Source: a virus
Taxonomy: Duplodnaviria; Caudoviricetes
DNA length: 64,000 nt
Reading direction: 5' to 3' (one strand)
IMG/VR virus record: IMGVR_UViG_3300034059_000003
Span: 21,940 to 85,939 of that record
Below the pieces are notes generated by a model, which saw only the letters and a program-made list of their open reading frames with translations, was not told where the DNA came from and did no database searches. Both the position numbers and the translations under genes were made by a program. Positions 23,801 through 41,789 of the stretch are shown in pieces (position 1 is the stretch's first letter; the number at the start of each line of letters is the position of its first letter).

Positions 23801-25900
23801 TTTTTCTGTTGTTATATTATCTGGCGTATTGGTTGTTTCCTCTAATCTTGCAGAAATAACACTTACATCACGTGGGTTAATAGTAGTAAGATCATAACAT
23901 TTTAATGTTTCAAAATTAGAACTTGCGTCTATAACTCCTTTATATGTTCCAATAATTTCAACATAATCTCCGGATGTCTGAACAAACTTTTTATAATATG
24001 AAATGTCAGGAGAAAAAATAGCAATATGTCTTGCTGCATATTCAGGTCCTTCTTTTGATGATGAATTATAGTCTCCAACTGTAGATTTTGCAGGATTTAT
24101 AAAAGCTGTTTCAGCATATTTAGTTGTAAGCAAATTTGCCTTTCCCTGAAGTTTTACGGTTTTATCTTCGTCTGTTCTTTTAACATAAACAATTTGAACA
24201 TACTTTACATCTGAAGGAAGATTACTTAATGTGAAATTTATTTGTAGTGGTCTTGATCTTACATATCCAAGATTCACCGTCTGACAGAATGGAGAATTTC
24301 CATATGGTGATTCAAATTCAAACTCATTATTTGGCATTCTAATATCACCTATCCATTTTACTGGACTTATACGTCCTTTATCATCATAACCAATGATTCC
24401 AAATCTATAAATCTCATCACGACAAAATCCCCTTAATTGTTGATTGTATAATGGACTTTCAGAACCTCCATAATAACCAGGATCAGGATATGTTTGTCTT
24501 GATATAAAAAAAGTATTATCAGGACTGTCATAATCTATAGCTCTATTCACATCACCAACTGCAGTAGGGGTTATAGTATATTTAACATTTGGACCTTCTC
24601 CACCTATTGTTACACAATCTGTCTGATATAAATATGAACTGGAAAAAAGTTGTTTCTTATCATATTGAATATTATTCCGACAAATAGCATCAATATCAAG
24701 TGGAAGGTTTGCCATTCCAATTACGGTACCAATTGAAATACCTGATGAATTATAATGAATCCATAAATTAGGATTATCTCTATGATTATACCAATATTCT
24801 CCATTTGACTCATCAAGTCTGCAGTCTTCCCATGTATGATATCTCCACCTGTATGCTCTTGAATCATAAGAAAAATCAAACTCAGACTGTCTTGTATTTG
24901 CAGCAAAAAGAATATTGTTTTTAGTTGCAATTGTTTTACATCTTAACGGATTATTTATAAGTAGATATTCTGCAAGAGTATATGTCCCAAGATCATAATC
25001 ACCGTCATCAGTAACATAGATTGTTGAACTAACAGGTTTAACATCAACAATACTTACGGTTGGTTCTCCATTTAATGTACTATAATGAATAGCAACAACT
25101 TCAATTCTGTCATAGTTTGTGTCTACACCTGTTATTTTAATTTGAATTCCTTTACCTGATGATAATCCTTCACCAGAAGAATCGAGTGCGTCAGAACCCT
25201 TAAAAGTGGTTGTATTTGCTAAAGATTGTGATGATTGACTTAAAGGAAACATTTGACTTGCTGGAGAGAAATTACTCGCAGCTCCATATAATTTATATAA
25301 TCGATATGAATATTGAACCATTCCTACTGGAATGTTACCATTGACAACCTTAGAAAATTCTGGTATTACCATTGTAACTTTCTGAACAATATCAAACTCA
25401 TCCGGAGTTCTTGTTGATAGTAATGGATCCACGAGATTACAAAAGCGCAAATTATTATAATCATCAGTCCAATAAACTTTATGGATAGAATCACTTTCAT
25501 AAAACTCAACTATGTCTTCAATAGGATGTTGCATTGATAGATTGAGCAATCCATTATAAAGAAGTGTGAAATTTGACATTATCACAGTATCGTCATGAAG
25601 TGGGACACTCCATAGTCTGCCATATGATGCAGTAGGGTTTGCTGAGTCATCATCAGTAGTAATTATCAATGTCCTATCACGAAGTTTTTTTGCACCAATT
25701 ATTCTGTCATTTGGATATCCAAGTGTTTCAAAACTTCCGGCTAACGGTATATTACCAAGAACATCTGTAAGTGCATCATTACGAGAAGGGTTATTACTTG
25801 TTCTTCTCATATTACGGCAATCAAACATTGCATCACTTCCTATTTTATTAAGAGAAGTGTCACGATCAAGTTTCTTATATGTATTACGAAATGCTTGCAT
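20801..25900 (-). CDS. Tail muzzle/stabilisation protein (P22 gp10-like) with three appended FN3-like modules and a FISUMP domain (1699 aa)
   Basis: Muzzle-type core (DEIYRFGIIGYD; WASNENIQVDNSFGPINKL; GEGDILSRFDIIST; YWYDHKRK). Three repeats ending YxVRAYATNxxGTxYGNExxF at ~22340-21430, then a Fib_succ_major-like domain (YGAIYNWYAV...ATNETGFTAIPAG...GMSVKCVRD). Confidence 0.85.
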   Translation of the reverse strand: MQAFRNTYKKLDRDTSLNKIGSDAMFDCRNMRRTSNNPSRNDALTDVLGNIPLAGSFETLGYPNDRIIGAKKLRDRTLIITTDDDSANPTASYGRLWSVPLHDDTVIMSNFTLLYNGLLNLSMQHPIEDIVEFYESDSIHKVYWTDDYNNLRFCNLVDPLLSTRTPDEFDIVQKVTMVIPEFSKVVNGNIPVGMVQYSYRLYKLYGAASNFSPASQMFPLSQSSQSLANTTTFKGSDALDSSGEGLSSGKGIQIKITGVDTNYDRIEVVAIHYSTLNGEPTVSIVDVKPVSSTIYVTDDGDYDLGTYTLAEYLLINNPLRCKTIATKNNILFAANTRQSEFDFSYDSRAYRWRYHTWEDCRLDESNGEYWYNHRDNPNLWIHYNSSGISIGTVIGMANLPLDIDAICRNNIQYDKKQLFSSSYLYQTDCVTIGGEGPNVKYTITPTAVGDVNRAIDYDSPDNTFFISRQTYPDPGYYGGSESPLYNQQLRGFCRDEIYRFGIIGYDDKGRISPVKWIGDIRMPNNEFEFESPYGNSPFCQTVNLGYVRSRPLQINFTLSNLPSDVKYVQIVYVKRTDEDKTVKLQGKANLLTTKYAETAFINPAKSTVGDYNSSSKEGPEYAARHIAIFSPDISYYKKFVQTSGDYVEIIGTYKGVIDASSNFETLKCYDLTTINPRDVSVISARLEETTNTPDNITTEKNFGTLTAYGRYNFLANMVKYSGVNTYVGNLGTCLLVQMSAFFDTNNLPSTEYFLLNYRTNLWGTQYGGHTYEDRTRNEYISAGKMVSVSSGSATAYANYGDTYIGYADHLVSYYNKYYEENQHWFGAVEMFPVETSVNLAYTLDDCWHRIYNQLDTAYYLREKNNSEFTAAGNTYSPGWTDLYLENTAYIKLADARKFYPAPLDYDPDEVNDTLVMASNAKVGKETIDPWTQWASNENIQVDNSFGPINKLFSWKNFLLYWQTDAIGALSVLDRSVVTDQQGRSTKLGEGDILSRFDIISTNLGLSTRFSITESFSGIYWYDHKRKTINRFLNSIEDVSTIRGVNSYLQSIDNDFADYDNVISPSKNGKGFFMFHNPMYKEPWFIIKENSEYGIALLLYEVEDSFICFVDTQAYFYLKVDNKVFSAYNKFVYREDKGYPGHFFGKYYDSYVTVVVNPKPNLTSLFTNLEITSEVYKTDLETTQYSVTIPVLTTRVIDNITGTSARSGGTITFDGGDSIIDKGVCYGLSTNPTIENSSKLSAGSEITTFISNISGLQAGQTYYVRAYATNSAGTAYGNERTFTIVSLATLITTIVSSITDVSAISGIEVSNFGGETPSAFGICCNTGATPTIANKLYPVTLLYSRTSGLLKSYTKVLDGLIEDTNYHIRAYCTNSTGTAYGNEIAFSTNNVVAADVLTTEISSITTTTAVSGGNIVSGGGGIVTARGICWNTSSNPTISNSHTVNGSGLGTFSANLINLVPGTIYYVRAYATTSGGTTYGNEVVFTTNELSVLIDLSDLDNNVYYTVIINNQEWIVSNLKTTKYADGVSIPYIEMGTEFSADRSGAYCWPNNDIDNRELYGAIYNWYAVNNARGLVYFKRNGVHETGWRVATKTDWENLATYLGGNSVTGGKLKENGTEHWASPNIGATNETGFTAIPAGVRDYVGNFNFLSKTIAAFWTATQYDTSQAVMRVMYNTIASLGVNNYDKRNGMSVKCVRDI

Positions 25901-27527: not shown

Positions 27528-28215
27528 TTAAAGTTTCGTTTGAATCATTTACTTTATCAGTAGGAGCACTCGTTAAAAATTTAAAGTTATCTTCAGTTAT
27601 CTGGTTGCGGATATAATTCCACATCCATCTATTCATCGGATATTCATCATCGTCACTATAACATGCTGTACCATCAATATGCGTGAAGTTTGAAACATCT
27701 TCAGGGTTCTCAAATATTCCACGGACGCCTAAGTATCTCATGTATACAAGAAAACTATCACCACTCATATTCTTTGATATTACGAGTAGTTTAAGCCCAT
27801 AACGGAAAGTAAATATCATATTTGAATTCCATCTTCCATTGCCACTAAATCTTGCTCGTTCAATTGGTACATATGAAAAAGGTCGACTCATTTTATCTAT
27901 TGGTCCAACGCTGATTATTCCATCACTTTTATTTAACTCGATCGTTTTTGGAATATCAAGTTTGGTCTGTAAAACTGTATAACCGGTAAGATGTTCTGGA
28001 CATGAACTCCTGTCTGCAAATTCAAGTTCCATACACAAAGTCTGTATTAACTGTTCATCAACTGAATGAGATTTATTCAAATCATTTCGTAACCAGAGGG
28101 CTCTTTGATTATGAATCCAGTTCTTTATCATACGATCATCAAGTTTGTCGTCATCATAAAGATTAAATTGACGAACTCTCTCTCTGATCTCATATATCAT
28201 TTCATTTGATGTCAT
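27505..28215 (-). CDS. Tail ring/tube protein (236 aa)
   Basis: DDRMIKNWIHNQRALWL...IQTLCMELEFAD...GIFENPEDV...YPM pattern, in the conserved crAss position. Confidence 0.65.
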   Translation of the reverse strand: MTSNEMIYEIRERVRQFNLYDDDKLDDRMIKNWIHNQRALWLRNDLNKSHSVDEQLIQTLCMELEFADRSSCPEHLTGYTVLQTKLDIPKTIELNKSDGIISVGPIDKMSRPFSYVPIERARFSGNGRWNSNMIFTFRYGLKLLVISKNMSGDSFLVYMRYLGVRGIFENPEDVSNFTHIDGTACYSDDDEYPMNRWMWNYIRNQITEDNFKFLTSAPTDKVNDSNETLNVASNEE

Positions 28216-28991
28216 TACTTGATTTTTTTATATAATAATTGGAATCCTTCAAATACAAAAATTCCCGTAAGAGAATGGAACCACCATTGTTGATATACTT
28301 TTGGCGGATCATTTACTATCGTAATTTCTGCATTATTGATAGTTAGATATCTATTAGTAGTAGTAAAAACACCAACGGGCTTTCTTTTAAAAAGCCCATC
28401 ATTCACATATCCAAGATACATTTGTCCTTTGATCGGAATCTCAAGATTAAAATATATCTGTCTATTTGCCCGCATACCTGCAATTAAATTAATATCTCTT
28501 GTATGCAAATCTATCAGAGTAAAAGGAACACGTAAGTAATCCTTTATCATAGATGAATCTTTAACTGTAATAAATTCCGATCCTGGTTGAATTGCCAAAG
28601 AATCCCTGAGAATCTTTATTGTGCCTTCAAGTTTTGCATTTGCTACAAGACTTTTTAAATGAAGTGCTTTCAATGTAGAATTCTCAAGGATTCCGGCATC
28701 AATGGCATCTTGCTGGGATAAAATCAAAGCATCTTTTTCAAAGACTAACATCTTCAGTCCTTTGATCTCTATCTCGTATGACCTGATTGAATCACGTTGA
28801 GCAATGATATTATATTTTAAGGTATTTCGGATCCTTAAAGTACTATATCTTCCTCCTATGAAGGAACCAACCATTATCAAAAGAAAGATTATTGTATAGA
28901 GAATCTTATTGTTAGATTTCTCCATCTTCTCTTTTATCCAAGCAAGAAACCACTTTTTCATCGTCTTATTCTTTTGGTTTGAACCATCCAT
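28215..28991 (-). CDS. Spanin-like membrane protein (N-terminal TM plus coiled coil)
   Basis: TM segment ILYTIIFLLIMVGSFIGG, a coiled region and a hydrophobic C-terminal tip. Adjacent to the holin- and endolysin-like genes. Confidence 0.45.
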   Translation of the reverse strand: MDGSNQKNKTMKKWFLAWIKEKMEKSNNKILYTIIFLLIMVGSFIGGRYSTLRIRNTLKYNIIAQRDSIRSYEIEIKGLKMLVFEKDALILSQQDAIDAGILENSTLKALHLKSLVANAKLEGTIKILRDSLAIQPGSEFITVKDSSMIKDYLRVPFTLIDLHTRDINLIAGMRANRQIYFNLEIPIKGQMYLGYVNDGLFKRKPVGVFTTTNRYLTINNAEITIVNDPPKVYQQWWFHSLTGIFVFEGFQLLYKKIK

Positions 28992-29373
28992 CTACTTTAT
29001 CAAGTATGGCTTTAACAAAAGGAATATCGAACATTCCATTTGCTACGAGTCCGGCAGCAAAACCATAATAGATAGCTTTAAAGATTGGAAAGTCAGCTGC
29101 AAAACCATAATTTAATAAATCTGCTGCAACTATGATAATAATAGAAACTCCCCAGGCTACAAGTTGTTTTACGAACTTTTTTGTCACCTTAAGAACACCA
29201 TTTAACATAGCTGCAAAGAAAGCTGATATTACAGCAAGACCTGCCAAAGAACCAAGATACACATCCAATTTTGTAATTACATCAAGGATGTTTGTTGGAT
29301 CAGGAATTTCCTGAGCATTGAGAACTCCAATTGTTACAAATAGTAACCCAAAAATGAAAATGATTTTTTTCAT
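28966..29373 (-). CDS. Holin-like multi-pass membrane protein with apparent signal peptide (135 aa)
   Basis: MKKIIFIFGLLFVTIGVLNA|QE followed by three hydrophobic segments. Lies next to the putative endolysin. Confidence 0.55.
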   Translation of the reverse strand: MKKIIFIFGLLFVTIGVLNAQEIPDPTNILDVITKLDVYLGSLAGLAVISAFFAAMLNGVLKVTKKFVKQLVAWGVSIIIIVAADLLNYGFAADFPIFKAIYYGFAAGLVANGMFDIPFVKAILDKVDGWFKPKE

Positions 29374-29411
29374 GATGTTTGAAATTTAGTTAATACTGCA
29401 TTTGAATCTCA

Positions 29412-29879
29412 TTATTGTTTAATAGTAATGAATACTCTATAATTTAGTTTTGCTTTACGAACCATCTCTGTTATTATCGTAGAATAAAGTCTTCCATCTA
29501 CAAGTTGACCTTTTATTTTATTTAATCCTACTCCTATACAACCAAGCGTATCTTCTTTGTCAACAACAGAATGTATCAAAATACCAGAGAATCCTTTTAC
29601 CCCTTTTAATCTTGGATATTCTTTTCCATATTTCTTCCAAAACCATAACTCGACTTCATATCTTCCACAAGGGATTGCAGTGTCACCATATACTTTCCCT
29701 TCTCCCGGATCATTAAAATCTCCATCATTGTTTTTATCAACCAATTCACGAATAGGATCCTCAAGTGTATCACAAAGAATATTATTTGTCTTTTCATCAG
29801 AATAACGATATAAGAATTTACCTATTGTATAGTCTGGTAATAACCATTTTCTGTAAACCTCAAGTTCTAATGTTTTCAT
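29412..29879 (-). CDS. DUF5675-like putative endolysin (155 aa)
   Basis: YTIGK...CDTLED...KVYGDTAIPCGRY...FSGILIH...DTLGCIGVG, the pattern of DUF5675 proteins found in crAss lysis cassettes. Confidence 0.75.
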   Translation of the reverse strand: MKTLELEVYRKWLLPDYTIGKFLYRYSDEKTNNILCDTLEDPIRELVDKNNDGDFNDPGEGKVYGDTAIPCGRYEVELWFWKKYGKEYPRLKGVKGFSGILIHSVVDKEDTLGCIGVGLNKIKGQLVDGRLYSTIITEMVRKAKLNYRVFITIKQ

Positions 29880-29882
29880 AAA

Positions 29883-30281
29883 TTATTCTTTTAATGCTTC
29901 ACCAAGATTTTTTATTCCAATAGTATTCCCATTGTCATTATATGAAAGACCACGTTTTTTTGCCAGTGATGAAATTACCTTTCTTTGAAAACTAAAGTAC
30001 TCATTCTGGATCTGTCTAACTTTATCCTGATCATTTTCTTTTATACCGATCAGTTCCTTTGTCATCAACTGATTACTCTCAAGTATCGCGTCTATAACAA
30101 AAAGTGGTGTGTAATCGTCATTTATTTTCTGGACTCTTTCTTCAAGATTGTTCTGAGCAACAGTCAGTTTAATTGACAATGTTATCTGTGTAATGCCAAC
30201 TCCTATAAATACAGACAGAAGAGCAATTATGATCTTCTGCATCGAGTCACCTTTTTCTTTAGTATGTTCTTTTTTTTCCAT
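29883..30281 (-). CDS. Single-TM protein of the lysis cassette (132 aa)
   Basis: IIIALLSVFIGVGITQITLSI followed by a coiled, charged tail. Confidence 0.5.
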   Translation of the reverse strand: MEKKEHTKEKGDSMQKIIIALLSVFIGVGITQITLSIKLTVAQNNLEERVQKINDDYTPLFVIDAILESNQLMTKELIGIKENDQDKVRQIQNEYFSFQRKVISSLAKKRGLSYNDNGNTIGIKNLGEALKE

Positions 30282-30309: not shown

Positions 30310-32301
30310 TTAGTTCTTTATAAAAGTGTCGTCAAATATTACAAAATCGTTTCCATATTTTACGTAATTATTTACCAATGGTGGACTTGATGTAGTAAAT
30401 TCTACATCACTACCATAACCAGTCCCAGCACTATTTGTTGCATATGCACGAATATGATATATAGTTGATGCGGTAAGTCCCGATAAAGAACTTGTAAACG
30501 ATCCTTCTCCTGTACCATCGGAAGTATGTGTATCTGTCGTAGTAGGATTAATAGATGTACTCCAACATATTCCTTTAACAGTTACAGTACCATTACCATC
30601 AGATGTTACATTACCTCCGGAAGAGGCTGTAGTGGTAGTTATATTTGAAGTGGATGTTGTAGTAACAGTTGGAACAACAACTGTTATTGTACCATATTGA
30701 AAAGCACCTATACTTGGATTTGTACCATCAAATGATTCTCCGTTGAAGTCAAGAAGAATATCAAGATCCTGGCCTGCTGTTTTTATTGTTGACGAAGATG
30801 TTAAAGTATAATCTCCACCAGATAGATCAGTAAATAATGGATTAACAAAGTAACCATGCAATTCCCAACTTAATACACTCTGCAATGATGATAGAGTATT
30901 CATATAATACATTGCTGAACTTTCGTTTTCAACAACACGAAGAGAATTACTAACGCGATAGTAAGCATTATAATCTGCAGTCTGATAAGTTAAATCACGG
31001 CCATAGGCACGTACAAAGAGTTCACAACCATTATTGTCGTCAGTACTGGTTGTGTAAAAGACATTATTCTTTATTCTAATAGTATCGTTGTTTGCATCAA
31101 TCCAAACATGTGCCCAAGAAGTTGACTTATGATTTACAAAAGTATTATTATAGATATAAACACTTTGAGCTCCCTCCATATTTATTGAGGCAGATACAGG
31201 GGAAATAAAAACATTAGAATAGATATAGAGATTACAAATAGTTGATGAGAGATCAGAATAGTCATAGTTCTGAACAAAGATCTGATGCACGTCGTTCGTT
31301 GCATTATTATTTGTGTCATCAAAACTATTTCTCCGTATAATTGTATTATGAATCTTCATACCTGTACCATTGCCTACTGAAATATCAACACCGGTTGTAT
31401 GATAACAGTTATAAAACTCATTATCTTCTATAATAATGTTTGAAACAAGATATCCACCATATAAATGAAAGGAAAGAGCTCTTCTTCCAATATCATGCAT
31501 CTTACAATTTTTTACAAGCATTTCATTATATATTGCTTGTGTACCATAAGCATCTTCAGAGTTTTTAATACCTATATATCCTAACTCAAGATTCTGAATT
31601 TTTAAACCTGTCTTTTCTTGCCAACCACCATCTGCAGCATCAAACTGAATCCCGGCATAACCACAATAAAAAATATTAACGCCATTTATATCGATGTAAT
31701 TTTGGTAGTTAAGATCTATAATAAACGATTGTTGTGGTATTTCTATAGAAGTATATCTGGTATCTGGATCTGTCACAGCATATACATAAACTTTTCCACC
31801 TGTGTAATACCAATTATATTCTGCAGTTAAATATGCAATTCCTGTTTTATGTATTCCCCATGTTACTGCTCCTGAAGTGCTTTCAAAGAAGACCTCACAA
31901 CCGCCAGGCCCTGATCGTCCATACATATCAGTTGCATCAGGATCTGTAACAGTCGCATCACAAACCCATACATTAGTACTATATGATGACCATGTTGACT
32001 TTACAGAACCAAGGATCCTTGGATTATCACCGGTACCATATTTTCCTATGATAATATAATTTGCTGTAGTTCCACTTCCGGTAAGTGACAACATACCACG
32101 AAAAGTGTCACCACACTTGAAAAGGACCTGATCTCCGGCCACAAGAGTTGTAGCATTGACTTTTGTTATACTTGCCCATGCGAGTACCTCTGTCTGGCCT
32201 GAATCGTTGTCATTACCATCAGAAGAACTTACATAATATATTGTCGCATACAATGGAGATGCGATAAGAACCATCAATAATATAAGAATCTTTTTCATCA
32301 T
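30310..32301 (-). CDS. Right-handed beta-helix (pectate-lyase-like) protein with signal peptide and C-terminal FN3-like module (663 aa)
   Basis: MKKILILLMVLIASPLYA|TIYYVSSSDGNDNDSG, GDQVLFKCGDTFRG, repeated parallel beta-helix rungs (IIIEDNEFYNC, IIRRNSF, YIYSNVF, YIYNNTF, IKNNVF), and C-terminal ...YHIRAYATNSAGTGYG. Confidence 0.8.
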   Translation of the reverse strand: MMKKILILLMVLIASPLYATIYYVSSSDGNDNDSGQTEVLAWASITKVNATTLVAGDQVLFKCGDTFRGMLSLTGSGTTANYIIIGKYGTGDNPRILGSVKSTWSSYSTNVWVCDATVTDPDATDMYGRSGPGGCEVFFESTSGAVTWGIHKTGIAYLTAEYNWYYTGGKVYVYAVTDPDTRYTSIEIPQQSFIIDLNYQNYIDINGVNIFYCGYAGIQFDAADGGWQEKTGLKIQNLELGYIGIKNSEDAYGTQAIYNEMLVKNCKMHDIGRRALSFHLYGGYLVSNIIIEDNEFYNCYHTTGVDISVGNGTGMKIHNTIIRRNSFDDTNNNATNDVHQIFVQNYDYSDLSSTICNLYIYSNVFISPVSASINMEGAQSVYIYNNTFVNHKSTSWAHVWIDANNDTIRIKNNVFYTTSTDDNNGCELFVRAYGRDLTYQTADYNAYYRVSNSLRVVENESSAMYYMNTLSSLQSVLSWELHGYFVNPLFTDLSGGDYTLTSSSTIKTAGQDLDILLDFNGESFDGTNPSIGAFQYGTITVVVPTVTTTSTSNITTTTASSGGNVTSDGNGTVTVKGICWSTSINPTTTDTHTSDGTGEGSFTSSLSGLTASTIYHIRAYATNSAGTGYGSDVEFTTSSPPLVNNYVKYGNDFVIFDDTFIKN

Positions 32302-33785
32302 TCTATTCCTTTAGAGTTTGAATCCATGTATGTTTCTATAGCTGCATTGACATCATCTACTAAACCTGCCAATGAACCACCAAGATGAACAACAGATATC
32401 TGTGCATCACAAAAACGTTTTGGTACTGGTCCAGTTGGCGCATTAATGCAAAGAATATACGGTTTTGCATAACTATTAACAGCGGTTGAAGTATATGATG
32501 CTGTTTCAAGTAAAGTCCCGTTTCTATATAACACTAAATCAGATGAATTTGGCTTATCAACTGTCCAATAACCTCTTGATTCACCACTCCATTCATTTGC
32601 ATAATCTTCTCCACCAGTACTATTAAGACAGTATATAACACCATATGAACCAAATGAAGAAGAAAATTGATTGTATGCATTACCATCATTAGTACATCCG
32701 AACATCCATTTACCTTCTGTTGCTGTGTACCCAACACGAACATAAAGTCCATAAGATGCATTGTTTAGTGTATATTTAGTCAAATTACTAAGATACATTC
32801 CACCAGCTTCAAGATAACCATTACTCGTATCATCTCCACCTTCAGTTGCAGTACCTTTAAATCCTTCATATGCTGTAAATACCGGGGTATTATGAATGAT
32901 AGAATTATAAGTACCAGGATTCTTCCAATTGATTAAAGCCTCTGAACCACTATTTGAATGAGTGGCAAATACATAGAATATATCAAATGTTGTCCAGGCA
33001 CCACACGCTTTCAATGTTTTAACCAGTGTATTCTGATTGGATCCAACCGCTACAGACGGTTTATTGGTCATTGCATTATAAACAGCATAATATTCATCAG
33101 TATATATATCACCAGCTTCAAATAAATCACCGAGAGTTACTCCATTATTATAACCAGTTATACCTGCCTTTCCAGAAGTATATTCTGTTACTGTAGCTGA
33201 ACCACTTGTGCCAACACCAGTATCAACTGATCCATTTAGATATGCAGTTATGGTAGTACCATTAATTTCTAATCTTACAGTAGCACCTGCACTTATTGAT
33301 GCAGTACCTGCTGATCCAAGATTTGTCTTTACACCATTATCTATTCTAAATAAACGCTGTGTACCATTCATTACATAGTAACCATATCCACAAGTTGTAG
33401 CCCCAGTACCAGATAATCTAACACCAACTCCCATTGCATCACTTACATCACCAACATTTGATATTGTTATTTGTGCATATTGATTTGTACCGAAAGTGGC
33501 ATCATATTGAGCAACTGTAACTGAAGTAGAAGTATAAGACTGAACTAATCTCGCACCATTTCCACCATCATATACAGTAATGGAATTTAATAAAACATCC
33601 CAATTACCTTGTCCATTTAGAGATGCTACAGAATAGGTGTTGAAGTTATCCGTATATGCCGGACCATAATGTAATGTTTCTCCTGAAGGAACACGATATG
33701 AAGAGGCAACTACGCCAGGTATTACCTGTGATGTTACAGATAGCGATACTATAAGTAACGATAGAAGAAATGTTAACTTTTTCAT
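32298..33785 (-). CDS. Lectin-like (ConA/LamG-type) distal fibre/adhesin with signal peptide (495 aa)
   Basis: MKKLTFLLSLLIVSLSVTS|QVIPGVVASS, then two beta-sandwich-like regions (VRLEINGTTITAYLNG; LVLYRNGTLL). Confidence 0.6.
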   Translation of the reverse strand: MKKLTFLLSLLIVSLSVTSQVIPGVVASSYRVPSGETLHYGPAYTDNFNTYSVASLNGQGNWDVLLNSITVYDGGNGARLVQSYTSTSVTVAQYDATFGTNQYAQITISNVGDVSDAMGVGVRLSGTGATTCGYGYYVMNGTQRLFRIDNGVKTNLGSAGTASISAGATVRLEINGTTITAYLNGSVDTGVGTSGSATVTEYTSGKAGITGYNNGVTLGDLFEAGDIYTDEYYAVYNAMTNKPSVAVGSNQNTLVKTLKACGAWTTFDIFYVFATHSNSGSEALINWKNPGTYNSIIHNTPVFTAYEGFKGTATEGGDDTSNGYLEAGGMYLSNLTKYTLNNASYGLYVRVGYTATEGKWMFGCTNDGNAYNQFSSSFGSYGVIYCLNSTGGEDYANEWSGESRGYWTVDKPNSSDLVLYRNGTLLETASYTSTAVNSYAKPYILCINAPTGPVPKRFCDAQISVVHLGGSLAGLVDDVNAAIETYMDSNSKGIE

Positions 33786-35614
33786 GCTTCAATGTCTCCA
33801 ATTAAAATCCATGTATCTGTGTCTGTCTTAATTATAGTGCAACTGGACCATTGTACTCTAAGATCCTTATAACTTCCAGCACTATTAAGCGTACCTCCTG
33901 AAGTAATTGCTATTGTCGTTTCTCCTGCACCACCCTGTATAATTGTAATCTGTGTTCCTGTTGGAAAAGCAACTGAAGAATTAAGAGGAATAGTAAATGT
34001 ATTGGCAGATGCATTAGTCATCGTAACAATCTTATAAGCATCACCAATTACTGCTGTATACGTTGTTCCTGTCTGTGCATTAAGAGTAACACTCTTTGGT
34101 GCTTTTGCATCAAGTTGTGTTTGTACAGCACTTGTTACACCATCCATATATGCAAGTTCAGTAGCATCTACAGAACTTACTGATGTTCCCCATGCAGATC
34201 CTGTTGAAATAGGAATTCCGGCTCCAGGATATACCATACTACCACTACCATTTGCAACCCAAGATCTCGTTCCTCCAGTTGTTGAAGATAGAACATATCC
34301 AGTCGTTCCTGGATTACCAAGAGAACTTTCTTTTGCTGCAAGACCTGTTGTTAAATCATAATTTGATGCATAATGTCCCGAGCCAGGTACTGAGTCTGCA
34401 ATCATCACTGCTAAACTTGATAAAGAAATTGCACCACCAAGTCTTGCAGAAATACTATCATTAATCAATGTTGGGATAGTAGACATCGCATATGCTGTAG
34501 TTGCTATCTGTGTAGTATTTGTCTTTGCAGTAGCAGTTGGAGCAATTGGAACCCCTGTTAATGTTGAACTTGTAAGTATTGTCTCTTTTGATTCATTAGT
34601 AACGTTACCAAGACCAACATCAGATGAAACAAGAGAAAGGGCAGTTTTAAAATTTGCAACGGATAAGGTTGAAATAGTATTATCAGCATTAAACCTTGGA
34701 AATGTTATTGCTCCTGGATTTGTAAGAGTAAATATATTACTACCTATTGTTGTCGCTCCTAATGACGTTCTTCCTGTAGCAGCTGTCAATCCTGTTGCAC
34801 CACCGTCCCACTTAAGACGGTCTGTATAAGCAGTAACTGCATTAGTGCCGTTAGTATTTACCCAAGTATATGCAGTATTCCAATTCGTTGAGTTATCTGT
34901 TATTGACGTACCCCAAGCAGAAGAACCTCCATAAACAACAATTCCGGCTGTTGCCGGCCATGTCATTGATCCTCCACTACCATTTGCAACCCAAGATCGT
35001 ACTCCGGCTGCCGAAGAAGATAATACATAACCATCAGTTCCTGGATTACCTAATGCTGCTTCTGCAGATATAGCAGTTCTGAAGTTTGCTGCACTTAATG
35101 TCGAAACAGTATTATTAGCATTTATTTGAGGAAATGTAATGGCACCAGGATCTGATAGTGTAAAAAAATTGCTACCAACTGTTGTTGCACCAAGAGATGT
35201 TCTACCAGTTGCAGCAGTAAGTCCAGTAGAACCTCCATCCCATTTTAATCTATCTGTATAAGCTGTTACGGCATTAGCCCCATTTGAATTAACCCAAGTA
35301 TAAGCGGTATTCCAGTTTGTAGAGTTGTTTGTTATACTCGTTCCCCAAGATGTACCTGCAGAAACAGCAATGCCGGCAGTAGGATATACCATTGTTCCAC
35401 CACCGGAGTTATAAACATAGTCACGTACATCTTGTAATGATGCTACAGTGTCAGTTGTTCCAATAAGGAGTGTTGCTTTATTAAAGGCGACAGAATCCTT
35501 AAAGAATGATTTGTATCTTATAGGAACCCATCCATTTGATAATCTGAATCTCGTTTGACCGCATGAGATCAATGTAAAACAGATTAGAACCGAAATGATT
35601 AGACTTTTTTTCAT
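33782..35614 (-). CDS. Tail-fibre-like protein with signal peptide and internal repeats (610 aa)
   Basis: MKKSLIISVLICFTLISCG|QT. Thr/Ala/Gly-rich shaft with a duplicated ~90-aa block, KAPIASPTFTG-like segment (SSTLTGVPIAPTA), and C-terminal LRVQWSSCTIIKTDTDTWILIGD fibre-tip domain. Confidence 0.75.
   Translation of the reverse strand: MKKSLIISVLICFTLISCGQTRFRLSNGWVPIRYKSFFKDSVAFNKATLLIGTTDTVASLQDVRDYVYNSGGGTMVYPTAGIAVSAGTSWGTSITNNSTNWNTAYTWVNSNGANAVTAYTDRLKWDGGSTGLTAATGRTSLGATTVGSNFFTLSDPGAITFPQINANNTVSTLSAANFRTAISAEAALGNPGTDGYVLSSSAAGVRSWVANGSGGSMTWPATAGIVVYGGSSAWGTSITDNSTNWNTAYTWVNTNGTNAVTAYTDRLKWDGGATGLTAATGRTSLGATTIGSNIFTLTNPGAITFPRFNADNTISTLSVANFKTALSLVSSDVGLGNVTNESKETILTSSTLTGVPIAPTATAKTNTTQIATTAYAMSTIPTLINDSISARLGGAISLSSLAVMIADSVPGSGHYASNYDLTTGLAAKESSLGNPGTTGYVLSSTTGGTRSWVANGSGSMVYPGAGIPISTGSAWGTSVSSVDATELAYMDGVTSAVQTQLDAKAPKSVTLNAQTGTTYTAVIGDAYKIVTMTNASANTFTIPLNSSVAFPTGTQITIIQGGAGETTIAITSGGTLNSAGSYKDLRVQWSSCTIIKTDTDTWILIGDIEA
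34641..35347 (-). repeat. Two ~273-nt direct repeats within the fibre gene (~35075-35347 and ~34641-34916)
   Basis: Both encode WGTSITxNSTNWNTAYTWVNxNGxNAVTAYTDRLKWDGGxTGLTAATGRTSLGATTxGSNxFTLxxPGAITFPxxNAxNTxSTLSxANFxTA. Confidence 0.85.
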
Positions 35615-36186
35615 TAGTATATTATTTTAATTCGTACATCATCAATTGCATCAGAAGAATACACGGTAATTACATAAATACCACCGACAAGACTTATTAT
35701 TGGATCACCAAGATTCTTAGTAATCACAATACCATCAGAATCAATGAACTCAATATTATATGGTTCATATGTCAATGTTGTAGTAATTATGTTATTACCA
35801 ACAACAAGATCTTGTGTTATTGTATATTTTGCCATGTCGGAAACAGTGTTAGTTGTTGGAGTAGTAACAATAGGAGTTGTATTTGAACTCCTTTCATAGT
35901 TATATCTGTCCAGTTCGCGGTAAGCATCGTCAATTATACTTTGGATATCATTAACAGTAAGTACATTATAGTATTCTGTTACAGCAACATCACCTATTAC
36001 CTGATAACGATAAAGTATCTCAATATACTTTGAAATTAAGATGTTTCTTTTATTAAGGTTGGCAAGAAATAACTGACCTCCTGTATGATAAGCAAAAGAC
36101 TTTGACAGGTCTTCAGCAAGACGACTATGCAATAATTGAATTGTTGCTATATCACTATTCAATATATTCTGATCCAGAACTTGCAT
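35614..36186 (-). CDS. Tail hub/collar-like structural protein (190 aa)
   Basis: Helical N-terminal part and a short beta-rich C-terminal part. Assigned by position in the tail module. Confidence 0.45.
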   Translation of the reverse strand: MQVLDQNILNSDIATIQLLHSRLAEDLSKSFAYHTGGQLFLANLNKRNILISKYIEILYRYQVIGDVAVTEYYNVLTVNDIQSIIDDAYRELDRYNYERSSNTTPIVTTPTTNTVSDMAKYTITQDLVVGNNIITTTLTYEPYNIEFIDSDGIVITKNLGDPIISLVGGIYVITVYSSDAIDDVRIKIIY

Positions 36187-38536
36187 TTGCTTTTAAATTA
36201 TCAAATGTTAAACTATCAACAATATAGTTAATTCTATTATCTTGGGACATCCATTTAGAAATTAAATCCCTTTCTGCTATAGTGTTATGATGAGAGGAAG
36301 GTTTTATTTTTTCTTCAAGAAAATAATGACTTTTTTCACTTTGAAAAAATGTGAATCCAGAAATAATTATATTCTTAAATCCAAGAGCTCGGGCTATTCC
36401 AATAGCCATTATGCCTACAGTTGGAAATGCATTTATCTCTTCCGTAACTTCTCTGAATAACATAGCAAAAGCATCATTATTTCCATAAGTATAAACTACA
36501 TTGCCATTCTTTATTAATTTCTCAGCATTATTCAACCAATGTAGATGCATCATTTTTGCAGAAGTATATTTTTGGTACAAATTATCTGATATCGGAAGAA
36601 CACCAAGTATTGGATAATCAACCTTTCCAGAAGGGATAATCTCATGATAAAGACTCGAAATATTAAGATCTATTTTTGATCCGATTTCTTTATATTGTTC
36701 TCCTATCTTGAAATTATTACATCTCATAACAAAAGAATGATCAATTTTATCTGAGAGATCTGTTCTGAATGGACCATTCCCTATTACTGAACAGGTATCG
36801 AAATCTTTACACAGTTTCTCTATTTCAGTAAATAGAAAATTATATTTGTCTGATTTATAATCAGGAACCTCTTTCTTTAAAGAAACTTTATCCTTGAACC
36901 GTCTTGATGCTTGATGATGTGAAACTACTGGATTATCACACTGTAAAAATTGATTATCCCAAATATAAATATACTCTTTTGGTAAATCAGCAACAATTAT
37001 ATCAGTATATCCACTAATCACCAATTGGAAATTAGGTGCATCGGGATTATTGTTGGTTGAATTTAACTGAATCCACTTATTTAATATTTCTCTTGTTACA
37101 GTATTGTTTTTAAAATACATTGTCCCGGTCATCTTTTCATTCCACTCTTTTATATAATGGAATGAAATATCACAATTAAGAGAATAAAAGAATTCAGGAT
37201 CTCTTAAAACTTCAGCATCAGCATCAATCCATACAACATCTTTGTTGTATTTATCCATTACACTCTTTATAACTTGTGGTTTCATTTGAGTGTTTAATTC
37301 CCAGGATCCCTGATTCCTTAATCCAACAATTTCATAAGGCAAATTAAACTTATCAAGAGACTTCTTTAGTGTTTCAACTTCTTTTTCATATGGTGTGTCT
37401 GAAGTAAACATGCTGACATATATTATATCGTTCTTTCCAGACATAGAAAAATTCAACTTATCTTCAATGAATTTAAGATTTTGTTCATTCTGATTACGTA
37501 TGTCTTCTGGAATTCCATCACAGAACTTTACCATTAATGCATGTTCTTTTGCCTGTATAAAATTACCAATCCAATAATAACAGATAGCAAGTTCGAAATC
37601 AGCCTGGAATCTTTTATTTGTTAAATGAATAAACAGTTTATCCGTCTTTGGATATGACATTCTTAATACTTCTTCCTGTATAATTCGTGCAAGATGATAT
37701 TTCTTTTTCTCGCGATAAATCAATCCAAGCATAAACAAGGCCTCAAATCTTGTTGGCCGATATGAATAGGCTTCTGCTAATTGTATTGTTGCACTATCAT
37801 AATTCTTAAGATGATACTGAAGAACTCCTATCTGGAATAATGAATAGTAAACCTCTTCTTCCCAACCCATTCTACGAACTCTTTCTTCATAATATTTTAT
37901 AGCTTTTTCATATTCTTGCATATTGGCATATGTCTGAGCCAGATAGAAATAGTTCCGTGTTTCATTTGGATTATCGACAATTGCTTTCTCAAGTAGATCT
38001 CTATCACGAACAAGTTTTTCCTTTCTTGATCCACCATCGGCATGATGAATAATAGATAACTCATGTAATTCAGGACTTTCTCCACAATTAGTTGAATTGA
38101 TATATTCATGTGTTACTCCAGTATAGAACCAATGCTTATTGCCATTTACAAGGAGTATCTGAGCGAAATCAAGATCACCAAGATATCTTAAATGATACCA
38201 ATCATACTTCAATGTGTTTTTGTCAAATGAATCTAAGATGACATATTCAAAATCAGCATCAGCCAATAATAAATAACTCGACTTGTCATAAGCGAGTTCC
38301 ATCAATTCATTCCTATTATGTCCAAAATTAACCCAAGATCTTTCGTGTATTTCTCCTGGAATATCTCCCATTGTTTCTTTTATCACTGCGATTGTGTTAT
38401 CAGTAGATCCAGTGTCAACAATGCAGTAATAATCAATAATTGACTTACAACTATTGATTAATCTTGCAATTGTTTTTTCTTCTTGTTTAACAATTGCACA
38501 TAAACAGATAGTTTTGTTTGTTACTGTTGATTCCAT
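36155..38536 (-). CDS. Three-domain glycosyltransferase: GT2 + TPR + second GT-A + GT29 (sialyltransferase-like) (793 aa)
   Basis: ICLCAIVKQEE...IVDTGSTD...LLADAD (GT2); TPR repeats (YFYLAQTY, YYSLFQIG, EALFMLG); SWELNTQMKP...VWIDAD (GT-A DxD); CSVIGNG...VMRCNN, PTVGIMAI...GFTFF and HHNTIAE resembling sialylmotifs L, S and VS. Confidence 0.85.
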   Translation of the reverse strand: MESTVTNKTICLCAIVKQEEKTIARLINSCKSIIDYYCIVDTGSTDNTIAVIKETMGDIPGEIHERSWVNFGHNRNELMELAYDKSSYLLLADADFEYVILDSFDKNTLKYDWYHLRYLGDLDFAQILLVNGNKHWFYTGVTHEYINSTNCGESPELHELSIIHHADGGSRKEKLVRDRDLLEKAIVDNPNETRNYFYLAQTYANMQEYEKAIKYYEERVRRMGWEEEVYYSLFQIGVLQYHLKNYDSATIQLAEAYSYRPTRFEALFMLGLIYREKKKYHLARIIQEEVLRMSYPKTDKLFIHLTNKRFQADFELAICYYWIGNFIQAKEHALMVKFCDGIPEDIRNQNEQNLKFIEDKLNFSMSGKNDIIYVSMFTSDTPYEKEVETLKKSLDKFNLPYEIVGLRNQGSWELNTQMKPQVIKSVMDKYNKDVVWIDADAEVLRDPEFFYSLNCDISFHYIKEWNEKMTGTMYFKNNTVTREILNKWIQLNSTNNNPDAPNFQLVISGYTDIIVADLPKEYIYIWDNQFLQCDNPVVSHHQASRRFKDKVSLKKEVPDYKSDKYNFLFTEIEKLCKDFDTCSVIGNGPFRTDLSDKIDHSFVMRCNNFKIGEQYKEIGSKIDLNISSLYHEIIPSGKVDYPILGVLPISDNLYQKYTSAKMMHLHWLNNAEKLIKNGNVVYTYGNNDAFAMLFREVTEEINAFPTVGIMAIGIARALGFKNIIISGFTFFQSEKSHYFLEEKIKPSSHHNTIAERDLISKWMSQDNRINYIVDSLTFDNLKANASSGSEYIE

Positions 38537-38588: not shown

Positions 38589-39941
38589 TTATGTATGAAA
38601 CACATTTGTCCAATCATTATCGTATGCACAAATAGCCTGAGTCGATAATCCTAACCAAGCAGTTCCATCTATTACTTCAGGAATTAAAACACCACTTCTT
38701 AAATGTTTGCATGCATAATTCTGAACCATCCATACTTGACCACCTATTAGAACCGTGTCATAAATATTACCATCATAATCAGAAACCTTTTCTCCTTCAG
38801 TATATCCAGTTAAATTGTCTCTTATTAACCTTATCGCACACCCTTGTTTTTTAATAATAGATCTTGCTAATATTGCTTCTCCGGTAGCAACAAATTTATT
38901 CGCATATGCATTTACTCCATATGATAAACTATCTTCTGTATTTGTCCACAGTTCTCCAACATTCTTTAATTGTTGAAAATTAGCAACTAATAAACCGTTT
39001 CTTATACCATTTCCTACTGCTGTAAATCCTGAACTATTTGTTGCACCCTCATCGTCACTAATCCAATGTATTATTCCAGTTTCTCTGCAGGCTTTATTTA
39101 CTTCTATCAAAGTACTCCAATTATTAAATAATGTTTGGTATTCGGATGTAGAAGGAATATGCCATCCTATTGGTGGTGTTAATGCATTATTCGCAGCGTA
39201 CCAATTATATAAAAGACCATAATTTATTACATTACTATAACCAGGTAAAAATACATAATCCCAATTATTGTCATAAGCACAACATCCTGGTGTAATTAAT
39301 TCAAACCATGAATTAGCATTTTGTACTTCTGGAATTGGAACTCCATTTGAAAAATGTGTTACAGCAAGATTTTGTTGAAGCCAAACCTGCGTACCAATCT
39401 TTACAGTAGTATAAATATTTCCATCATAATCTCTAACTACCATTCCGGGATACCATTGAGACGTATCTATTAATAGACATCTTATCGACATACCCCATTT
39501 TTTGTCATCGTTTGCAGGTGATCCTCCAACTACTGTATACGCATATTCATGTATAGAATCATATCTTATTTGTTGAACATAAGTTAGGTTATTATGAAAA
39601 TATCCAGAATTTTTTAATCCATCAAAATATGGAGATACATTATAAATACTATATCTCCAACCACCGCCAAATATTGTAAGTTTTGAACTGTTTGTTGCGC
39701 CAGTATTAGGATAATTCCAATGGATATATCCAACTTCTTTACATTTACCTCCTGCAATTGATATTCCACCAAGATAATTCCATAATGTAGTCCAATCGGC
39801 TAAAAGTGGAACTTTCCATCCTATAGGAGCAATTCCATTTGAACTATTGGCTGCATACCAATTATAAAGTAAACCATATGAAATATTAGATACTGGTCTT
39901 ATAGAATTAAGTAATGATCTGAAGATAGAAGAACTTCTCAT
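38589..39941 (-). CDS. FISUMP (Fib_succ_major, C-type-lectin-like) tandem protein, circularly permuted (450 aa)
   Basis: YGLLYNWYAA...GWxxP...ATNSS...G(M/C)xIR occurs twice, each time followed by DYDGNIYxTVxIGxQVW...CAYDNxW. Confidence 0.85.
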   Translation of the reverse strand: MRSSSIFRSLLNSIRPVSNISYGLLYNWYAANSSNGIAPIGWKVPLLADWTTLWNYLGGISIAGGKCKEVGYIHWNYPNTGATNSSKLTIFGGGWRYSIYNVSPYFDGLKNSGYFHNNLTYVQQIRYDSIHEYAYTVVGGSPANDDKKWGMSIRCLLIDTSQWYPGMVVRDYDGNIYTTVKIGTQVWLQQNLAVTHFSNGVPIPEVQNANSWFELITPGCCAYDNNWDYVFLPGYSNVINYGLLYNWYAANNALTPPIGWHIPSTSEYQTLFNNWSTLIEVNKACRETGIIHWISDDEGATNSSGFTAVGNGIRNGLLVANFQQLKNVGELWTNTEDSLSYGVNAYANKFVATGEAILARSIIKKQGCAIRLIRDNLTGYTEGEKVSDYDGNIYDTVLIGGQVWMVQNYACKHLRSGVLIPEVIDGTAWLGLSTQAICAYDNDWTNVFHT

Positions 39942-39944
39942 TTC

Positions 39945-41789
39945 TTATTGTGTATATGGTCCTCCAATATTCCAATAGAATCCGGTATTATCATAGATAA
40001 ACGATACTATCGTTCTCTCGTTTGGTCCTGTGAATATGTTTTTTTCAGTACCATCTTTGAAATAATTTGTTCCTGTAAAAGACAAAGAATGTCCGCCAGA
40101 GGCATCTTGAAAAACAAGTAAATTTCCACATTCCCCGCTTAGAACATTTGATAATATAATAGTCGTATTCTGTGTTAAGAATAATTTTGCATTATATCCT
40201 TGTGAAAGATTCCAATGAACACCTGCAGTTGAATTATCAAGTCTCAGAAATGCCTTTTGTGCTTCAGCTGGTCCTGTAGGACCTATTAATCCTTGTGAAC
40301 CGGAAGGACCAGTTGGTCCCATAGAACCTTGCATTGCTTCAACAAACAATCTTGCCTTCATTACCTGAAGATATCCACTACCTGTTGATCTCCTATATCT
40401 TCCTTTAATAGTATGTGACCCTATAGATAAAGCATCAAACCTTACTATTACAGGAATCATTTGTGGATTTAATGAATCAAGATATATTTGATGTTCTCCA
40501 GAGTCTACACCATCAACTTGAACAGCAAGTGCAAGAGTAGATGCACCACCAGCACCTCTTGTTGTATCAAGTCTTACTTCACAATTTAACGTAATGAGTA
40601 ACTCAACAGATTCATTCAAAATAATTGTTGTAATGACACCAGAAATATCTTCTAAAGTCGATGATACTGTTCCTGAAGAAGTAAGTTTCTCAATATATGA
40701 ACTTGGTATTTTACCTGCAATAGCATCAATACCTGCAGGACCAGTAGACCCTTGTACTCCTGTTAGCCCAATTGGACCAGTTGGTCCGGTTATTCCTTGT
40801 GCTCCTATTGAACCAGTCGATCCTTTTGAACCTGTAGGACCTACAGATCCTGTATTGCCTTTTGCACCTGTAGGACCTGTTACAGATAATCCAGATGCGC
40901 CTGTCGGCCCTATTGGACCTGTTGGACCCAAAGGTCCTGTTGGACCGGTTACAGACGGTCCAGTACTACCTTGTGGACCGGTAGGACCCGGTGCATATGC
41001 GCCACCATAAAGATTTATTTTCCAATCAGAGTAAGTTCCTGATCCAGTATGATTTATCGATTGTACTGATAATTCTCCTGAAGCACCGGTATAATTAACA
41101 ACTGATGCTCTGAATAAGTTATTAACATCATAAGCAATAACAACATCTTGTCCTGTTGTATATGCTCTTCCTGTAGAACAAGTTATATCTATTCCTATAG
41201 GATGTGACGATGGGATTACTATTGTATCGGAAGATAAAGATGCATATCTCTCTCCTATTCCGGTTGCACCTGTTGGACCTTGTATCCCTTGTGGACCGGT
41301 TGGTCCTGCAGCGGTTGATGCGGCTCCGGTTATACCGGCAGGTCCTACTGCACCGGCTGGACCTGTTGGACCGGTATTTCCTTGTGGACCTGTAGGTCCT
41401 TGGACACCTGTTGGACCGGTAGATCCCGGTATTATAGATGCTGGACCAGTTGGTCCTGTACTTCCTTTTGATCCTGCCGGTCCTGATGGTCCGGCAATTC
41501 CTTGTATTCCGGTTGCACCTTTTATCCCAATTGGACCTGTCACACCTTTAGGTCCTACTGTTCCTGTAACACCACGCGGTCCAGTTGGTCCTACACCTTG
41601 AGGTCCTGTTGGTCCTACTGCACCGGTAGGTCCTCTTTGTCCTGCCGGTCCAGGAATACTTGTACCTGGTAAGACTGTTAATCCTGAGAGAATAATGTTT
41701 TTATTATCATTCCTTGCAGGTTCAACTGCATAACCAGAACTCCCAGTAATAGAGGGAGATGGTCCTAAGAATTGTGCCCCAGTACTCAT
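39945..41789 (-). CDS. Collagen-like fibre protein rich in Gly-Pro-Thr (614 aa)
   Basis: Three Gly-X-Y tracts dominated by GPT/GST/GAT/GVT, separated by globular domains. C-terminal tip domain [11 protein letters not shown]...[17 protein letters not shown]. Confidence 0.9.

Follow-up and report, generated by a model that had tools for sequence, protein, structure and literature searches.

Textbook tailed phages build all of their virion parts in the cytoplasm. Proteins exported by Bacteroidota through the Sec pathway and trimmed by signal peptidase I (SPase I) include substrates obeying a "Q-rule", in which cleavage exposes Gln at the +1 position, and the known substrates of this kind are cellular proteins (Bochtler et al., 2018, PMC5837995; PMC10653852). 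Prophages of P. gingivalis encode Q-rule leader proteins as well, of unknown function, for which a part in altering the surface of the host has been proposed (Matrishin et al., 2023, PMC10367356). The subject of the present analysis is a window of 64,000 nucleotides, positions 21940-85939 of an 85.9-kb IMG/VR virus record (IMGVR_UViG_3300034059_000003), in which a crAss-like phage carries three consecutive genes, here called A (fibre protein), B (lectin partner) and C (beta-helix enzyme), each of which opens with a Sec-type leader. A, B and a 135-residue protein encoded nearby resemble the Q-rule substrates in having a basic n-region, a hydrophobic core, small residues at -3 and -1, and Gln at +1, which suggests that these phage genes are adapted to the export grammar of the host, while C departs from the rule and keeps the Thr/His found at +1 in its own family. 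What sets the window apart from both the cellular substrates and the P. gingivalis prophage examples is the cargo: a lytic-type crAss-like phage here carries a module made up of tail fibre, lectin and depolymerase. Q-rule leaders as such had thus been noted before in phage genes of unknown function; in the literature, no description was found of Sec leaders on tailed-phage fibres or fibre modules.

Among described virions, that of crAss001 is comparable in several respects: it belongs to the same virus order, its tail is made of the same parts (Ring 1-4, muzzle, AuxCP), and its fibre block adjoins lysis genes. In crAss001, residues 1-26 of the fibre gp22 are inserted into the THA/THB hubs, and gp22 in turn bears further fibres (Bayfield et al., 2023, PMC10172136). 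However, gp22-gp26 are leaderless and show no sequence similarity to A, B, C or the 190-residue protein encoded immediately upstream of A. The tail barrel, fibre hubs and a capsid auxiliary dimer of crAss001 are reported to be stabilised by disulfide bonds (PMC10172136). Such bonds are unusual for parts put together in reducing cytoplasm and may bear on the time and place of crassvirus tail maturation. Similarly, in branched complexes of receptor-binding proteins (CBA120 TSP1-4, G7C gp66/gp63.1, T4 gp10; PMC8825819) one anchor carries the receptor-binding proteins via their N-terminal parts, and the payloads of the window type are likewise modular, with a lectin, a LamG domain or a beta-helix placed behind one N-terminal motif. 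The branched complexes use XD2/XD3 jelly-roll docking near the anchor N-terminus and assemble in the cytoplasm, whereas in the window the candidate socket is C-terminal and XD1/gp9-like, the plug is a 10-residue peptide, and every component bears a Sec leader. A further parallel is provided by the MAT fibres of Bdellovibrio (Caulton et al., 2024, PMC10769870), phage-fibre-like trimeric adhesins displayed on a Gram-negative surface, whose location indicates that such fibres can mature outside the cytoplasm; these are, however, cellular proteins of a predator from another phylum, and no homology to them was found.

As a preliminary description of this DNA had reported, A, B and C are consecutive open reading frames (ORFs) on the minus strand (Table 1), and their N-termini are those given there. 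Specifically, each begins with a 19-residue n-h-c leader, reading MKKSLIISVLICFTLISCG↓Q in A, MKKLTFLLSLLIVSLSVTS↓Q in B and M-MKKILILLMVLIASPLYA↓T in C (arrows mark predicted cleavage sites), and structure prediction models residues 2-18 of the A leader as a helix. The same description had held that all three leaders follow the Q-rule. This is true of A (G↓Q) and B (S↓Q); in C the +1 residue is Thr (A↓T), the norm for its family, in which leaders of 17-21 residues end in an AXA-type site followed by T/H-x-YY[VI], in cellular members as in phage ones. In addition, residues 15-18 of A, LISC, also fit the lipobox pattern [LVI][ASTVI][GAS]C, at which signal peptidase II (SPase II) would cut before Cys18 (LIS↓C), while B and C have no Cys at the leader junction.

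Could such leaders be an artefact of wrongly assigned starts, or belong to host genes that were recently captured and are functionless in the phage? In favour of this idea, C clearly comes from a cellular family of secreted enzymes, and gene starts were read from sequence rather than determined by experiment. Nevertheless, the stop/start junctions of the four-gene group formed by the 190-residue protein gene, A, B and C all overlap (TAATG, ATGA, ATGATG; the ATG of B, for example, overlaps the stop codon of A), and these translationally coupled ATGs fix the leader starts. A and B contain no Met from the leader up to the conserved mature N-terminus, and the single internal Met of C, at codon 10, lies inside the leader, such that a start there would yield a truncated leader without an n-region. 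Moreover, phages of several kinds (crAss-like, podovirus-like, prophage-like and with HK97 capsids) have the leader-bearing cassette in common, whereas bacterial genomes almost lack it. An origin in misread starts or inert captured genes is for these reasons considered highly improbable.

Leaders were scored with a strict n-h-c detector, for which the n-region had to be positively charged, the hydrophobic h-region to run without interruption for 8-17 residues, and positions -3/-1 to hold small residues, whatever the residue at +1. In the window, six of about 42 real genes were flagged: A, B, C and three members of the adjacent lysis-type cassette. Four of the six are genuine leader genes (A, B, C and the 135-residue protein), and the remaining two, the N-terminal-transmembrane protein and the transmembrane protein of Table 1, are internal-start matches read as membrane anchors. 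A survey of 46 non-redundant phage loci comprising 579 genes recovered 92 leaders, and these are clustered: adjacent pairs of leader genes number 44, against an expectation of 19.5 +/- 3.0, a value that none of 5000 shuffles reached. Although the detector disregards it, the +1 residue is Gln in 32 of the 92 leaders (35%), ten-fold above background. Consistent with movement as a set, leader-bearing beta-helices have leader-bearing neighbours in 12 of 14 loci and leaderless ones in none of four (Fisher p about 0.005), a table that was corrected by hand, is small and not phylogenetically independent, and is therefore suggestive; the uncorrected automatic table is not significant (p 0.33), because ORFs cut by contig ends or started too early were mis-scored. 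Homologues keep both the leader length and the AXA-type site while the leader sequence varies, and a leader is present in 47 of the best 120 of the 2147 modular homologues of A and in 33 of the best 53 homologues of C. Taken together, these data support the view that the leaders are genuine, maintained export signals that travel as a set with their neighbours. From their presence, conservation and clustering we infer export and cleavage, and the leaders of A, B and C very probably do work as export signals.

The leader is not an obligatory part of the module. In the closest relative, a 99-kb crAss-like contig (L018), the proteins encoded in the same slot are without exception leaderless: a fibre, a B-like protein with 64% identity, a LamG protein, and a C-like protein with 58% identity. 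The last of these starts M-ATYYV, that is, at the predicted cleavage point of C. Leaderless forms of the module are common, which indicates that such modules can fold and work without export, and cultured crassviruses have leaderless fibres only. These observations lend some weight to the proposal that the hydrophobic N-termini are translated and yet not used for Sec export, acting instead as transient membrane tethers on the cytoplasmic face or as aids to assembly or trimerisation, or being simply tolerated, while the fibres assemble in the cytoplasm. Such a proposal leaves unexplained why the complete grammar of a signal peptide, from the basic n-region through the h-region to an AXA-type site, with its constant length and the excess of Gln at +1, is kept across divergent lineages as the sequence itself drifts, why leaders are gained and lost as a set with their neighbours, why the docking motif discussed below always lies exactly at the predicted cleavage site, and why cellular relatives of C are exported by the same leader. 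It is accordingly judged improbable.

An indication that the products of these genes act together comes from the junction between A and B. The preliminary description had held that fibre tips of the kind ending A (TDTWILIGD) are partnered by proteins with IPGVVAS/LGIIAS-like peptides at the extreme N-terminus, as in QVIPGVVASS, the sequence that cleavage of the B leader would expose. A degenerate DNA search for Q.IPGVVAS was made in viral contigs and in 596 Gb of bacterial genomes (185,579 genomes). Ten matches were obtained in viral contigs, of which eight are genuine in that they consist of a leader followed by Q[FILM]IPGVVASS, located right after a gene ending T.TWLL[IF]GDI, and the other two have neither leader nor tip. 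The bacterial genomes yielded 50 matches; two are genuine, indicating that the cassette is phage-borne, and the other 48, without both leader and tip, serve as a negative control. Every genuine gene with a leader and Q.IPGVVASS that was found, viral or bacterial, comes after a tip-ending gene (T.TW.LIGD type), so this pairing stands. The segment behind the motif varies in length from 157 to 645 residues. Relaxed to Q.[IL]PGV.AS, the motif immediately follows the leader whether the payload is a lectin, a LamG domain or a beta-helix, and in each case the gene upstream ends in a tip. In one locus (L113) the variant QIRLGTIASS heads a LamG protein, and in another case (P0169) Q.IPGVVASS heads a beta-helix of the C family whose upstream gene, as predicted beforehand, ends in a variant of the tip, NYWIYGNLQD followed by the stop codon.

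Support for a functional connection can also be found in a domain fusion: a protein designated P0114 (L114, 1057-3276) joins, in one chain, the leader, N-terminus and shaft of the A type (43-48% identity) to the lectin domain of B (E 1e-21). Pairing and fusion together support a physical complex of A and B in which B is distal and its plug is exposed by cleavage of the leader. In L114, P0114 is followed by a leader-bearing beta-helix and, directly after the latter, a gene for a DUF5675 protein, an arrangement that amounts to a compact version of the window cassette. In two contigs of one phage (L009, 652-2368, and L011), the leader of the Q.IPGVVASS gene is internal to a long open frame, about 400 codons of which precede it; fusion, read-through, or an unannotated gene that lacks a stop codon could account for this.

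Structural comparison of the components is consistent with their assignment to phage fibres and less so with a known mode of docking. The repeats of A, of the type GNPGT.GYVLSS..G.RSWV, are common to other fibres, and its C-terminus matches PHROG minor-tail and virion families. The tip, its C-terminal 105 residues, is modelled as a beta-sandwich with a predicted local distance difference test score (pLDDT) above 90, and the fold matches the C-domain of the Pa223 capsid spike (Z 14.7, root-mean-square deviation (rmsd) 1.7, 97 residues aligned), a KP1 baseplate protein (Z 10.7) and residues 80-180 of CBA120 TSP4, which constitute XD1 (Z 9.3), as well as glycan-binding domains of CpaA/StcE. The same domain exists as a stand-alone protein, gp36, in Gordonia phage Nubi. 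XD1 is a gp9-like sandwich, a spacer or glycan-binding fold, and the docking modules of branched complexes are XD2/XD3 (Chao et al., 2022, PMC8825819); the A tip matches the XD1/gp9 type rather than the XD2/XD3 docking fold, in a search that was effective for the confidently modelled tip only. By fold, the tip therefore reads as a distal fibre domain, not as a socket, and docking rests on the gene pairing and the one domain fusion, not on structure. A reading of the tip as a gp10-type docking domain was rejected, as residues 80-178 of TSP4 are XD1 (PMC8825819). Model confidence is low for the A shaft and for the N-terminal 100 residues of B, and no reading is drawn from either.

The label "lectin" given to B in the preliminary description agrees with fold and homologue matches, and so does the label "beta-helix" given to C. 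In VIA fold comparison the C-domain of B matches lectin-type jelly-rolls, carbohydrate-binding modules and a domain of a cyanopodophage tailspike (residues 253-494: Z 14-17, rmsd 2.7-3.4, 185-213 residues aligned; the pLDDT of the model is 61 overall). This domain is leaderless in L018 and in Flavobacterium phage elemo and is elsewhere fused to the tail-tube protein PF06199. Given folds that are found in virion proteins, the fusion of the B domain to a tail-tube protein and the near-absence of the cassette from bacteria, A, B and C appear to be phage fibre modules and not cell proteins.

A candidate for the partner of A on the cytoplasmic or virion side is the leaderless 190-residue protein. 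A domain homologous to its C-terminal domain precedes, with a stop/start overlap, every leader-bearing fibre whose mature N-terminus is of the GW.P.R.K..F.DSV type, in six of six loci (the window, L002, L004, L112, L113 and L114). Because it is leaderless and co-varies with the mature N-terminus of A, the two suggest a meeting across compartments once the membrane has been breached. The protein has no match in Pfam, PHROG or NCBIfam, and its identification with THA/THB of crAss001 was considered and rejected for want of BLAST similarity.

C can be traced to a cellular source. Its homologues carry PF13229, PF22842 and DUF5123, with beta-helix repeats and an N-terminal cap that, in C, matches GH136-type beta-helix enzymes (7v6m, 6kqs); an FN3-like stretch follows at residues 540-649. 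Many of these homologues are Bacteroidota proteins, 40-49% identical to C, with the sorting domain PF18962 of the type IX secretion system (T9SS), one of them encoded on a 4.38-Mb chromosome. With such T9SS enzymes (leader, PF13229 and PF18962) C shares the leader-proximal beta-helix and the junction of leader and cap; unlike them it has no PF18962 and carries instead, as do other phage copies, the FN3-like domain and a short tail. In leaderless homologues the sequence opens with M-[AI]-[TI]YYV, exactly at the predicted cleavage point of C. C thus probably descends from T9SS-secreted host enzymes, and its role as a glycanase is predicted. A locus search with the single C sequence gave no matches, and an alignment-based search was used in its place. 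With regard to cultured phages, megablast found no close relative of the cassette, and tblastn of A, B and C returned distant, partial matches only (Gordonia minor tail tips, "YapH" of Flavobacterium phage elemo, and FN3 pieces).

These findings are consistent with the following course of events. A, B and C would be one co-translated receptor-binding module sent through the Sec pathway of the Bacteroidota host, where SPase I would remove the leaders, so that A and B begin with Gln, subsequently converted to pyroglutamate, and C with Thr; alternatively, A would be cut and lipidated at Cys18. A would fold in the periplasm, its C-terminal tip would receive the newly exposed B peptide, (pyroGlu)-VIPGVVASS, and C, with its T9SS sorting domain swapped for the FN3-like domain and short tail, would accompany the other two. 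Neighbouring holin-type proteins would then breach the inner membrane, particles and periplasmic module would mix inside the still-closed outer membrane, and the mature N-terminus of A would bind the leaderless 190-residue protein, whereupon the module would join the tail. Docking, the part played by the 190-residue protein and attachment to virions at lysis are steps that we infer, and whether the whole chain, including incorporation into the virion, holds is in our estimation an even question. The exported fibre complex envisaged in the preliminary description accordingly gains from the maintained leaders and from the matched pair of tip and peptide, though the fold of the tip does not correspond to a known docking fold.

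An indication that leader-bearing proteins reach virions comes from Cellulophaga phage phi10:1 (KC821618.1). In this phage gp091-094 are consecutive, each has a leader followed by Gln, and all four are annotated as structural from tandem mass spectrometry (MS/MS); behind them lie a leader-bearing pectate lyase, gp095, which carries no such annotation, and then membrane proteins. The annotation of the record is silent on leaders. gp094 weakly resembles the A tip, and the beta-helix of gp093 is 44% identical to gp097 of crAss-like phage phi14:2, a leaderless tail protein detected by mass spectrometry. However, phi10:1 is a siphovirus; beyond the weak tip match, homology to A, B or C is not detectable in it, and Q.IPGVVASS does not occur. 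The MS/MS annotation favours the joining of such proteins to virions over a role outside them. Particular to the window are the tip/peptide rule, the evidence from fusion, the contrast of leader presence and absence with a close crAss-like relative, and the descent of C from T9SS cargo.

According to an alternative, the module is likewise exported but never enters the virion; it would operate within the infected cell's envelope or at its surface, or else be set free by lysis as a complex. Glycans at the surface would be bound by lectin and fibre and cut by the beta-helix, with possible roles in clearing capsule or receptors to keep progeny from being caught on debris, in blocking superinfection, or in opening the matrix around neighbouring cells. 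Such an arrangement would suit the architecture of C, in which the leader runs straight into the beta-helix cap without a tailspike anchor and whose nearest cellular relatives are T9SS-secreted, as well as the absence of an MS annotation for the pectate lyase gp095 and the proposed surface-modifying role of the P. gingivalis prophage proteins (PMC10367356). Likewise, the fibre module adjoins lysis-type genes not only in the window but also in L003, L112, L114 and phi10:1. On the other hand, a scan of A, B and C against Pfam (E <= 0.01) detected no T9SS sorting domain (PF18962, type A CTD), nor do they have an evident lipoprotein surface-export signal, and without these they would remain periplasmic, out of reach of surface glycans, up to lysis. 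Their domains are typical of virion fibre modules, four leader-bearing proteins of phi10:1 are annotated as virion components, and a module that never encountered cytoplasmic components would leave the co-varying leaderless protein upstream difficult to account for. A role confined to the envelope or to free complexes is on this evidence regarded as less likely than incorporation into virions.

Several observations nonetheless weigh against the proposed course of events, the fold of the tip and the small size of the beta-helix table among them. phi10:1 serves as an analogy, known through a note in its annotation, and virion preparations can contain co-purified vesicles or periplasmic proteins; among homologues of A, B and C, none from a cultured phage has virion data. 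The fibres of crAss001, the virion of which is solved, and those of phi14:2, annotated from mass spectrometry, are all leaderless, which supports the statement of the preliminary description that Sec leaders on tailed-phage fibres are unusual, and which counts equally against the need for them in crAss-like virions. The window itself encodes leaderless fibre candidates, namely a collagen-like protein (39945-41789), a Fib_succ_major protein (38589-39941) and a muzzle protein with a lectin end, such that the virion may not need A, B and C; the same candidates suit a module that works on the envelope. Clear LSGC lipoboxes in two tip-bearing homologues of A (P0013 and P0026) predict that some such proteins are lipoproteins, possibly including A itself, which better suits a membrane-anchored role than a virion role. 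C has no recognisable virion-anchor domain and looks like a free secreted enzyme. Finally, D[ST][AILVMT], the sequon for O-glycosylation in Bacteroidota, is not enriched in the three proteins (observed against expected: A, 4 and 3.1; B, 0 and 1.8; C, 1 and 3.6). Over B and C together (30310-33785), one sequon where about 5.4 would be expected from composition amounts to a mild depletion.

Should the favoured reading extend further, heads and tails of many Bacteroidota tailed phages would be made in the cytoplasm while a distal module is Sec-exported, trimmed by SPase I, folded in the periplasm and clipped on when holins open the membrane; we put this forward tentatively, as somewhat short of an even chance. 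With two compartments at work, leaders would be optional, and a module would switch as a whole between having them and lacking them. Expression and engineering of fibres from crAss-like and other gut or environmental phages would then need leaders that are deliberately kept or removed, periplasmic folding and a pyroglutamate N-terminus, and host-range prediction and the reading of virion proteomes would change as well. The pair formed by the tip and the leader with Q.IPGVVASS offers a simple sequence rule for which proteins ride which fibre in uncultured phages. If the module acts on the envelope of the infected cell instead, it would represent a widespread class of phage-encoded, exported complexes that bind and cut glycans, and under either reading phi10:1 is a cultured model in which the question can be tested.

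Table 1. Features of the leader-bearing fibre cassette and the adjoining lysis-type genes, in window positions.
Feature	Position	Strand	Remarks
Leaderless 190-residue protein, C-terminal beta domain of about 70 residues ending ..VGGIYVITVYSSDAIDDVRIKIIY before the stop codon	35614..36186	-	candidate cytoplasmic/virion-side partner of A
Gene A, 610-residue fibre protein with leader	33782..35614	-
A leader, residues 1-19 (MKKSLIISVLICFTLISCG)	35558..35614	-	predicted SPase I site SCG↓Q
A tip domain, residues ~505-610, ending TDTWILIGDIEA	33785..34102	-
Gene B, 495-residue lectin partner, two beta-sandwich domains, leader	32298..33785	-
B leader, residues 1-19 (MKKLTFLLSLLIVSLSVTS)	33729..33785	-	predicted cleavage VTS↓Q
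B predicted mature N-terminus, QVIPGVVASS	33699..33728	-	candidate docking peptide for the A tip
B C-domain, residues ~228-495, ConA-like lectin jelly-roll	32301..33104	-
Gene C, 663-residue predicted right-handed beta-helix glycanase with FN3-like domain, short C-terminal tail and leader	30310..32301	-
C leader, residues 1-19 (MMKKILILLMVLIASPLYA)	32245..32301	-	predicted cleavage LYA↓T
Lysis-type cassette	28215..30281	-	adjoins gene C; 4 genes
N-terminal-transmembrane protein of lysis-type cassette	29883-30281	-
DUF5675 protein, homologue of crAss001 gp30	29412-29879	-
Leader and transmembrane protein, 135 residues, lysis-type cassette	28966-29373	-
Transmembrane protein of lysis-type cassette	28215-28991	-

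The remainder of the window, every gene of which lies on the minus strand, identifies the phage as crAss-like. A crAss-type major head protein, portal and TerL are all encoded, Ring 1, Ring 2, Ring 3/4, muzzle and auxiliary capsid protein were identified, and the giant virion proteins typical of Crassvirales are represented by an ORF of more than 5545 residues. The head protein is at most 37% identical to that of any catalogued phage. A, B and C sit in a variable tail-fibre block with Ring 3/4 on one side and Ring 2 on the other, and the lysis-type cassette lies directly downstream. Within that cassette, the DUF5675 protein is 39% identical (BLAST, E 8e-24) to crAss001 gp30, annotated as an L,D-carboxypeptidase, and is probably the endolysin. 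The 135-residue protein has a cleavable-looking leader, ..GVLNA↓QEIPDP, with Gln at +1, followed by two or three more hydrophobic segments, and may thus represent a holin-like protein synthesised with its own signal peptide.

Two further genes of the tail-fibre block, both on the minus strand, are placed between the collagen-like fibre and the A-B-C cassette: one (36155-38536) encodes a 793-residue glycosyltransferase with GT2, TPR and GT29-like parts, and the other is that of the leaderless Fib_succ_major protein named above, which has two such domains. The muzzle protein (20801-25900, minus strand) consists in part of FN3-like repeats and has a C-terminal Fib_succ_major domain; between these repeats and the FN3-like domain in the L018 C-like protein (residues 537-626), identity is 36-58%, and a small domain is thus common to tail tip and enzyme. 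Lastly, the terminase ORF (52825-56061, minus strand) is 1078 residues long, the TerL match spanning residues 642-1052 only, and its N-terminal 640 residues give weak matches to primase/helicase PHROGs.

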